From the NCBI GenBank assembly GCA_951406725.2, contig OX597823.1:3968001-4032000 (forward strand): a stretch of DNA of 64,000 bases, written 5' to 3'. This DNA comes from Octopus vulgaris. Its lineage: Eukaryota. Below the pieces are notes generated by a model, which was not told the DNA's origin, did no database searches, and worked only from the letters and a program-made list of their open reading frames with translations. Shown in pieces: positions 36,007-39,480 of this stretch (the stretch's first letter is position 1; each line of letters opens with the position of its first letter). The position numbers were made by a program, and so were the translations under genes.

Positions 36007-36919
36007 CTCTATAATGTGTGTCGCCGTGTGTGCGTGTGTAGGTGACACACATCGTTCGAGATAGAAGGAAAAAAAAAAATACATCATGTGATTAATAACT
36101 AAAATATGTGTAACGTAACAAGTGCTGTTTCGGTATCAACGATCTACGTTTTAGAAAACGAAACCATGAGCCTACTACTTATCCCGCTAACCTTTCTTTT
36201 ACTCTCTTTCTTTCTCTCTTTAACTGATCCTTCTTATATCGTATATTGTGTTTTATATTAAAGGTTTTAATCCAAATCAAAGCGATAAAGTTTAACGTGG
36301 GTCTCTCAATTAAGACCGTTGCGCTTTTAGACGACGGGAGACAACCGACTAATGCAACGCACTTGTCACTTTCACATTTTTAGCGCTCAATCGCATCTAA
36401 TTTTTTAAACGAAGAATTTAAATTAAATTAATTAAAAAATATTCAATACCTGTATAATTTCTAATAAAATAAAATATTTATTTAAAACAATACACAAGTA
36501 GATTATTTCTCAATTTATTTCAAATTTATTTTAGGGTCGAATAAAAACATGCGATATAGATGTGTTGTTTTTATGAATGACTAAGTAAATTTATAAATGA
36601 TCTATGAATTTATAAAGTGCAACTACGTATCTGTTATCGCGTAAATTTCATTTATCTGAATTTCTTCATGACATCATTATTATTAATCGCTGTTGCTTGG
36701 TCAAAGGCCAATTAAATAGCCATTGCTATGTGGCTATTCTACTATTTGGATACCGCCCAGAATTGTTTTTTTTTAGATTTTATTTTATATTAGAAATTCA
36801 ACAGATAAGAATTTTAGCTGTGCAAGCAAAAATTCAATGACAACCCTTAATTATTTTTTTTAAAAAAGCAACAAATATATTTCTAATCGCTACATCAAAT
36901 TCTTGTACTTTTTTTTTTT

Positions 36920-37020
36920 TATTAGCAGCCAATCAACGAATATCATTTATAAAGTTTAGGTCGAGGAAAGGGTAAGTCGTCTACTTGGAATAGCCAAAGG
37001 CAGCCATCTTTCTGTTTTCC
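36920..37020 (+). promoter_or_regulatory. Putative proximal promoter of exon A (CCAAT/NF-Y box and YY1-like motif)
   Basis: AGCCAATCA at 36927-36935 and CAGCCATCTT at about 37000-37010, 300-380 nt upstream of the exon A ATG in repeat-free, CpG-retaining sequence. Confidence 0.45.
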
Positions 37021-37308
37021 GGTAGAGTAATAACAATCATAAAACTATCTTTATTTTTCAAGGTTCATTAAGCTGCTGAGGATGCTGGAAAGAAAAATAT
37101 TGACACACAGAAGAATAGAAAAACCATGGATGAATATTTCGTTAGAATTATTGTTTGCTGGCAAAATTTTTCATTGATAAGTCGTAGCCTGGGTGTTAGC
37201 CGGCTGGTGCGCTCCTCGACTCCAGTCGCTTGACAGATGACACAGGCTGGGACATTCGCTCGGATTTACTCATAAAACACCTGTACAGTCTAAACGGATG
37301 CGTGTATC

Positions 37309-37408
37309 ATGGATCTAGGAATAGACTTTCAGGATTATAGGGACCTGCAGCTTCCCTTATGTATTTTACAACTGGACCCTGCAGACAGAGCAGTTTTGAG
37401 AATTGCAG
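37309..37408 (+). CDS. DST/MACF1: Spectraplakin alternative first coding exon A (MDLGIDFQDYRDLQLPLCILQLDPADRAVLRIA + G, phase 1)
   Basis: First ATG after an in-frame TAA (37291-37293). 33 codons + 1 nt, ending at the strong donor CAG|GTAAGT (37409). Joined to 39419 it reads LDPADRAVLRIA-DERDAVQKKTF, matching the LDPAERAV(L/I)RIADERD motif I recall from vertebrate DST/MACF1/plectin. Confidence 0.9.
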
Positions 37409-38279
37409 GTAAGTGTGACAGATTCTTTATATAAAACTGTTGAATTCCATACATTTTCACCACTTGTAGCATCTATATAGCTATGCCTTATTTTAGACCC
37501 CATTTTCTTGTATTTAACACTGTAAATGTGAAACAGCTAACGTCGTAATTCTACCGTGTTAATAATATATTCCGAAATATTTCTCTGACTATTTAATTCC
37601 AACTCAATAATTACTGTTAACTGTTGCAATATTAAGAGGGCATAACTACACATTAGTGCTCCATCGATTTTGTTTCCGCATAACTTTCTGATAATTGCAT
37701 AATTTTAAAAGAAATCTTGCAGAAATACATTTTCAAGGGTGTAGATTACCGTTATGTTGATAATATTAAGAAAATACAAATATTTGTTGAAGTAGTTTCG
37801 AATCATTCTCACCCTCTCCGAAATTCGTTTCCACGTAACTCTTGTCTTAAAATGCGTATCATCAAATGACATTTTGCAGAAATATGATTTGGAAAGTGTA
37901 GATTGCATAATGTTGATGTTTCAAACGTAGAAATCTAATGAAAAAAGGTGTAAAATGCTAAAGTTACCGAAATAAATGGAATACTAATCTAGAGTTAATG
38001 CTTATTAGCATTTCCGTTGTTAAACTGAAAGTACAAGCTACATTCTCCTTGAAACAAAACCTTCGAATTTTCTTATAAATAATCTTTATTATTAAATTCT
38101 TTAAAACAGTCAAATAGATTTTTTAAAAAAGAAATATATTCATCTTTTAATTTTCGTTTATTATTTTTTCGTGAATAATTTTTGCGTTGCAGTTTATTTA
38201 GTAAGGCACATATTTCACGTCGCAATTTATTGCATCTTCCTTCAATATTAAACAGTTGGAGGTTACAATCAGTATACAA

Positions 38280-38318
<39 letters not shown>

Positions 38319-39149
38319 AATACGTTTGTTATATCAAAGCTGAAATCTAAGTCCTTCCACGCCCCCTTATCTCTCTCTATCTCTCTACATTCAATTAAAA
38401 CCCCAACCACTATGATAAAATAACTCCTGACACAAATATAAATACAAAGAATAATTGATATTACTTGTCGTGTAACATCTTGTGTTCAGTGATTATTTCT
38501 TGGATTCTGTTTCTAAGTCACGCCATCGTCTGTCTGTGCATCATCATTGATAGGAAGGAAGCTGCGAGAAGCCCATTCATAAGCTGCTTGTTTAATAATA
38601 CCCGTAGCCTAACCTGTTTTATCTATTCGGTCCGACCCAGCCTTCCCCCAAAGCATACGCCAGTAGTGAGAGCAACAGCAACATCTATTTTCGTCCTTCC
38701 TCGCTTCTAAGACATCATATTCACTCCTGCCAAATATATATATCTTAAACATCGACGTTGTTTTCTCGTTTTTCTCATTTTCAAGAGGGATTTTCTTTAC
38801 CTCGACAAGTTTCTACGAACTCACACCTTCGATCTCTATTCTGTTATAGCCACCTTCCCGAAAAAACCTACATTCTGCGCCATGGTTTAGGCCCCTAATA
38901 TGCAATGTATCCATTGAACCCAAATTTAATAACCAAGCGGGTAGAGGTTGGGTAGTAACTTTTGGTATCTAAACCTTTTGATCTAGTCAATCTGCACCCG
39001 TTTGCATCTGGTAATGGAAATGGATGTTTTCGGTGTATGTGGCCATCAGTAGGGTGTGCCCAGCGTAGCCGAAGGTCCTAATATTTCTGTCGTAGGATTG
39101 TACCTTTTACTCGGATTTACCTTCCTAAGCAGCCTGTTTTGTTGCCAAA

Positions 39150-39228
39150 ATGGATACGCCTGGTTATATGGACCCTGAAATGCCTGATGTGATGGTTCAG
39201 TATGAAGAAAATCGGAAAAAAGACACAG
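39150..39228 (+). CDS. DST/MACF1: Spectraplakin alternative first coding exon B (MDTPGYMDPEMPDVMVQYEENRKKDT + G, phase 1)
   Basis: Good start context GCCAAAATGG after an in-frame TAA (39126-39128). 26 codons + 1 nt, donor CAG|GTAACT at 39229, 190-nt intron to 39419. YEExRxK sits at the same distance from DERD as in plectin-1f as I recall it (YEEVREKYK-DERD). Confidence 0.8.
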
Positions 39229-39418
39229 GTAACTACAATAGTTGACGATATCGAACTAGAGTAAAAGTAGTGTTTTAGGTTCTAGCCACACTCTTGTTGC
39301 ACACACACACAAACAGTCACACCTGCATACCTGCCATTCTTCCCTGAAGAAAGTCCTTCAGGTAATCTAATAACTAAAAAAAAAAACTCTACTAATTGTC
39401 TTCTTGTTTCTATTTCAG

Positions 39419-39480
39419 ACGAGAGAGATGCGGTACAGAAAAAGACTTTCACCAAATGGGTGAATAAACATTTACTTAAG
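39419..39480 (+). CDS. DST/MACF1: Spectraplakin (dystonin/MACF1/plectin/Short stop family) common exon, start of calponin-homology CH1 actin-binding domain: (D)ERDAVQKKTFTKWVNKHLLK
   Basis: Branch point TACTAAT (39390-39396), pyrimidine tract and acceptor TTTCAG|AC, 62-nt exon, donor AAG|GTATGT. The translation contains the actinin-type ABD signature QKKTFTKWVN, preceded by the DERD typical of spectraplakins. Confidence 0.95.

Follow-up and report, generated by a model that had tools for sequence, protein, structure and literature searches.

The window examined here, a stretch of 64,000 nucleotides from contig C10 of the 2.8-Gb Octopus vulgaris genome, contains the 5' end of a spectraplakin gene, in which two alternative leaders, A and B, are joined to a single CH1 exon. 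The two leaders are likely to be orthologues of the vertebrate type-2 and type-1 leaders, respectively, and a promoter of its own is likely for each; the prediction is that both lengthen the first CH1 helix in a way that would alter actin binding; the probability of this reading is put at roughly 0.7. The features concerned, with their positions in the window, are as follows.

36746..36971, + strand, probable 5' exon without coding sequence, ahead of exon A (run X1 contig 36746-36973; 5' end undefined)
37063..37308, + strand, 5' untranslated region of exon A (contigs run on into the coding part; the ATG is preceded by an in-frame stop)
37309..37408, + strand, coding exon of leader A, 33 aa, type-2 / plectin-1c / Shot-B class, spliced to 39419
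38515..39149, + strand, 5' untranslated part of exon B (run X1 contig 38515-39225, joined to the 39419 exon; the 5' end is that of the contig only)
39150..39228, + strand, coding exon of leader B, 26 aa, type-1 / Shot-A class, spliced to 39419, with Tyr-Glu at -9/-8 from the junction
39419..39480, + strand, exon used with both leaders, where CH1 begins; corresponds to plectin exon 2 (best PDB matches plectin and MACF1)

Assignment of the Locus

The CH actin-binding domain is of the plakin-type tandem kind, plectin and MACF1 being its top PDB matches in both sequence and fold. Its CH1 and CH2 exons lie in order downstream on contig C10 in the + strand, and beyond them are two adjacent SH3_10 pieces, both weak (C10:4160711-4161059), and GAS2 exons (C10:4287503-4287856, + strand) that are about 280 kb downstream in the same locus, their transcript linkage being putative. 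Because all of these follow on the same strand, the window is assigned to a spectraplakin locus; a search for plectin repeats gave no match anywhere and is uninformative. The Octopus bimaculoides RefSeq models P0005 and P0036-P0041 are named "plectin" and end just past CH2, and the octopus genome studied here continues beyond that point to the GAS2 domain. Elsewhere in the genome, a stop-containing SH3_10 match (C22:42190806) and GAS2 exons (C22:42359597-42361292) lie 170 kb apart on one strand and probably represent a GAS2-like gene plus a chance SH3_10 match.

Splicing and Annotation of the Two Leaders

The first-pass annotation, which was made from the letters alone, proposed two ATG-initiated, phase-1 exons, each after an in-frame stop, that share a single acceptor; the coordinates, the ATG starts, the in-frame stops before them, the phase-1 GT donors, and the AG at 39419 are all confirmed. 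The junction 37408>39419 is present in contigs of runs X1, X5, and X10 (three of four runs; four studies), and 39228>39419 in contigs of X1 and X5 (two of the four) and also of X11, which is from a third study and another organism. It should be noted that the RNA nature of the runs is a guess (X11, and X10 in the second set); the joints are nevertheless exact GT..AG. The B joint is absent from the contigs of X10 and X9, an unspliced X10 contig spans B, and in the genome-sized run X18 the B stretch is in one unspliced piece. No joint from A into B is found among the contig joints listed, and no third leader in the window among the matches listed from a short-match tblastn search with 105 leaders. 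Contig depths, which are not taken as expression levels, are 287 for A and 9.5 for B in X1, and 7 and 11 in X5.

The description of both as first exons needs one correction: exon A probably comes first among the coding exons but not among all exons, because an X10 contig splices 36971>37063 through GT..AG. This joint is weak, being seen in one contig, which is from a related organism and has 27 letters on its shorter side. In run X1, the contig that covers exon A begins at the acceptor, 37063, and a contig of run X5 reads through unspliced from 36966. Upstream ATGs with short frames are present in both 5' untranslated regions, five in that of exon A (37082-37298) and seven in that of exon B (38882-39037), and could damp translation.

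The expectation that automated annotation might capture only one isoform proved wrong. Neither leader was missed, because the nine O. bimaculoides RefSeq isoforms comprise six with leader A (X1, X3, X4, X5, X8, and X9) and three with leader B (X2, X6, and X7), both peptides being identical to those of the window. In related organisms, exon B has four changes, by eye three synonymous and one Lys to Arg, and no insertion or deletion.

Leader A across Bilaterians

LQLDPADRAVLRIA is present in all 33 matches of a homologue search. Where it adjoins the CH1 exon, the end of the leader, LDPA[DE]RAV[LI]RIA, gives scores of 41-43 (p 0.0002 against the nulls), and it hardly varies from molluscs and arthropods to a hemichordate and the plectin of vertebrates. 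Named carriers include Nucella, Tegillarca, Haliotis, Ixodes, Leptotrombidium, Anopheles, Clonorchis, Saccoglossus, chicken plectin, and, in diverged form, lamprey. The placing of exon A in the plectin-1c / type-2 class is borne out by plectin chain 3f7p, which is identical to it at 10 of 12 residues, through LDPAERAVIRIA, and the vertebrate type-2-like end, LDPAERAVLRIA, is identical at 11 of 12; that these vertebrate sequences are of types 1 and 2 is assumed. From these alignments, the homology of leader A across bilaterians is not in doubt. Searches of the PDB with exon A alone or exon B alone gave nothing at E ≤ 10.

Leader B and Its Tyr-Glu Register

Exon B carries Tyr-Glu at -9/-8 from the CH1 junction, the register expected of a type-1 / plectin-1f / Shot-A leader, in which the pair would lie within an acidic-then-basic helix; the significance of the match comes through arthropod intermediates. 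[YF]EDVLERYK is the end shared by all 120 vertebrate matches listed of 1449, which are dystonin or MACF1 where they carry a name. Compared directly with this dystonin/MACF1 type-1 motif, exon B is identical at 2 of 10 positions, with a score of 7 (p 0.010, 0.043, and 0.038 under three nulls), a weak and marginal match that, taken alone, is suggestive only. When compared with the vertebrate motif, four arthropod-type leaders, chosen by eye as B-like, reach scores of 17-30 (p ≤ 0.002 with each of three nulls). When they are compared with exon B, three reach 19-20 (p ≤ 0.001) and the fourth, the drosophilid-type leader P0172, reaches only 4 (p 0.02-0.06). P0172 is identical to dystonin type 1 at 5 of 10 positions.

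The register was counted in the 60 of 149 representatives whose CH1 starts in plakin fashion and whose leader has at least 10 residues. Twenty-nine of the 60 are without the vertebrate signature and 8 of these are class A, leaving 21 non-A invertebrate leaders, among which [YF]E is found at -9/-8 in 11 and at five neighbouring registers in none; the count is biased towards B-like rows, because the query behind the 149 contained exon B. The pair occupies a fixed register in protostomes and vertebrates. Exon B shows no match (p > 0.08) to six further vertebrate plectin leaders that adjoin this junction. Among named taxa, class B is carried by Pinctada, by Capitella, in which the junction is odd, and by a nematode, Rhabditophanes; homologue searches recovered no B leader from an invertebrate deuterostome. 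A search with the B junction among proteins of 488-2000 aa returned mostly beta-spectrins, and hits in the ESM Atlas were all under 0.9. Three arthropod-type models (P0164, P0203, and P0224) have an additional Trp/Phe-rich segment after the B motif and ahead of the CH1 exon, which may represent a third leader or else a cassette.

The earlier assignment of exon B to the class of plectin-1f and dystonin isoform 1 therefore stands in part: the type-1 (dystonin/MACF1) link holds through the arthropod leaders, but the direct match, at 2 of 10, is marginal. The plectin-1f match proposed in the first-pass annotation is kept here as an assumption, homologue searches having returned no plectin-1f sequence. 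The first exons of P1f and MACF1 have been described as highly homologous (PMC4263455).

Predicted Helix Extension and Actin Binding

In the AlphaFold model of the O. bimaculoides protein with leader B, CH1 helix A runs on into the leader, spanning residues 12-48 with good confidence (pLDDT 73-86); in the model with leader A it does so as well, spanning residues 24-55, but with poor confidence within the leader (pLDDT under 50 at residues 28-33). Tyr20 of plectin-1f is presumably at position -9, that of the exon B tyrosine. In beta-III-spectrin, a matching extension folds on F-actin and is needed for binding (PMC5676748, PMC8810934). In plectin-1f, the leader and the domain act jointly, phosphomimics of Tyr20 are no longer targeted to focal adhesions and show reduced actin binding, and an effect of the P1f leader on binding and localisation of the actin-binding domain is reported in mouse cells (PMC2947472). 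Separate putative promoters are likely to drive A and B. By analogy with these proteins, and from the models, the choice of promoter would determine which helix precedes CH1, and the leader, by its predicted extension of the first helix of CH1, would alter actin affinity and partners. We infer that the leaders may tune the actin-binding domain in octopus in this manner.

An unlikely alternative is that both leaders are ancestral and that the switch sets the tissue or timing of transcription, the two ends being interchangeable extensions of helix A with equal effects on actin binding. The lead sequences of Shot are without reported function in the accessible text of 10.1101/122010, and both octopus leaders are modelled as one kind of helix, as such interchangeability would predict. 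However, two distinct motifs are each retained in parallel across phyla, and P1c is no substitute for P1f at focal adhesions (PMC2947472), which argues for leaders with different effects.

Exon Order and the Origin of Leader B

Exon A was found in 22 metagenome loci, of which 4 reach the CH1 exon (L008, L009, L020, and L025) and 18 do not and are uninformative on the complete order. The order A>B>CH1 of the window recurs in three of the four spanning loci (L008, L020, and L025), and in two loci that stop short of the CH1 exon (L007 and L010) B also follows A. The B-type phase-1 donors of L008 and L020 score 31-32 against vertebrate type 1, and all 8769 control donors score lower (maximum 19.5). 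In the window, exon B stands at the top of 54 candidate donors, and the B-type donor of L025 likewise leads those between A and CH1, each with a score of 10, which is close to the 9 or more that approximately 0.8% of random donors reach. In L009 (731-1000), A and CH1 are about 0.2 kb apart with no B between them, and B is presumably lost or elsewhere in this lineage. In two gene models from vertebrates, in which the leaders are fused, A is also ahead of B.

The common descent of B, as inferred through the arthropod intermediates and the exon order, would make it likely that both leaders go back to the ancestor that flies share with molluscs and vertebrates. It is distinctly unlikely that only A is ancestral and that B-type leaders arose repeatedly, converging on an acidic, Tyr-bearing helix under a shared constraint from CH1 helix A. 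Such convergence would account for the weak direct octopus-vertebrate score, for the lack of an invertebrate deuterostome B leader among the homologues recovered, and for the aromatic-Glu pair in the leaders of beta- and betaH-spectrins, which is one position further out. It accords poorly with the single register of the 11 leaders among 21, with arthropod-vertebrate scores of 24-32, with the position of B between A and CH1 in three of four spanning loci, and with the six vertebrate plectin leaders that are unlike exon B at the same junction. Finally, the reading of exon B as a leaky, lineage-specific cryptic exon without function, to which the missing B junction in X10 (with its unspliced contig over B) and X9 might point, is scarcely credible, as B is spliced in three studies and two organisms, and it appears largely refuted by conservation, exon B being identical in O. 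bimaculoides and having homologues in Pinctada (E 2e-7 against the window) and in loci L007, L010, and L025.

A Microexon in the CH Region

An optional microexon (C10:4054284-4054331; L003:1473-1520) is located outside the window, 47 kb downstream, after the first CH1 exon, and has two acceptors that give an insert of 16 aa or of 6 aa (HWRFSQ). The same slot holds HWRFSQ in Haliotis (where the long form is also found), an optional HWKHDE in Saccoglossus, and inserts beginning with HW in further proteins of invertebrates; in fish plectin, as in PDB entries 1mb8 and 1sh5, it holds HWRAE, suggesting that a plectin-2alpha-like microexon is shared; we take HWRAE to be plectin exon 2alpha. The five-residue length used in equating the two is from PMC8391331. 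O. bimaculoides also has an optional 15-aa insert between CH1 and CH2. Its identification as a counterpart of plectin 3alpha was rejected: the two inserts do not correspond because their positions differ, the octopus insert being after CH1 and the 12-aa insert of plectin inside CH1.

A more tentative proposal is that the last ancestor common to bilaterians had a three-part kit, comprising A and B in fixed order and the HW-microexon, and that the near-invariant B tyrosine is equivalent to plectin-1f Tyr20 and part of an ancient phospho-switch in actin binding; this is possible, though we would not favor it.

Relation to Published Work

The conclusion of the first-pass annotation that the switch predates the protostome-deuterostome split is supported in part, but it is not new, the fly forms dating from 1998 and the pairing with types 1 and 2 from 2017. 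Two alternative starts of kakapo, form A with 143 aa and form B with 32 aa, were described in 1998, with plakin similarity beginning at residue 135 of form A (PMC2133084), i.e. at position -9. A 2017 review places leaders in all spectraplakins and equates A and B with types 1 and 2 (10.1101/122010); its supplements may bear on the comparison of leaders. Several start sites in fly and mammals (PMC3352950) and the first exons of plectin (PMC3695321) have also been described. A 2022 paper states that the Shot A* and C* leaders lack informative homologies (PMC9320987). By eye, published primers show that Shot form A begins like P0172 and ends in LTQFK before DER, the LTQFK end of A* being given by a primer in that paper, and because of this start and end, Shot form A is assigned to class B. 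The parts seen of PMC2199363, PMC2168091, PMC4171495, and PMC8468861 contain nothing on leader homology, and a cross-phylum homology of motif, order, or microexon was not found in print in a search that key subscription papers lay outside.

Exon-level homology and a candidate conserved tyrosine are thus a modest, testable addition, the ancestral switch architecture being already in print, and the octopus locus itself is an ordinary example that is annotated already. How first-exon peptides prime the plectin actin-binding domain was described as unexplained in a 2021 review (PMC8391331). If the last 9-12 leader residues are conserved across bilaterians, the active part would be narrowed to a short helix, and the standard fly construct, Shot-PE, would be a model for the leaders of dystonin type 1 and of plectin-1f, in which mutations of exon 1f lead to limb-girdle dystrophy (PMC4263455).

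Comparison with Known Systems

Drosophila Shot/Kakapo resembles the octopus gene in having two alternative leaders on a single spectraplakin CH1 exon. Shot form B, like the class-A insect leader P0165, has 32 aa as compared with 33 aa in octopus leader A, whereas octopus leader B, with 26 aa as compared with 143 aa in form A, is much shorter and is diverged over its five final residues; Drosophila Shot also has CH2-only starts and starts that lack the actin-binding domain (C and D). Dystonin and MACF1 resemble octopus in their type-2-like end, LDPAERAVLRIA, and in their type-1-like end, YEDVLERYK, which is in the same register, but vertebrate class-A leaders are about 80-210 aa in length. Plectin resembles octopus in the LDPAERAVIRIA end of 3f7p and in having HWRAE (1mb8 and 1sh5) where octopus has the optional HWRFSQ, but differs in having about 12 first exons in place of the octopus pair of leaders.
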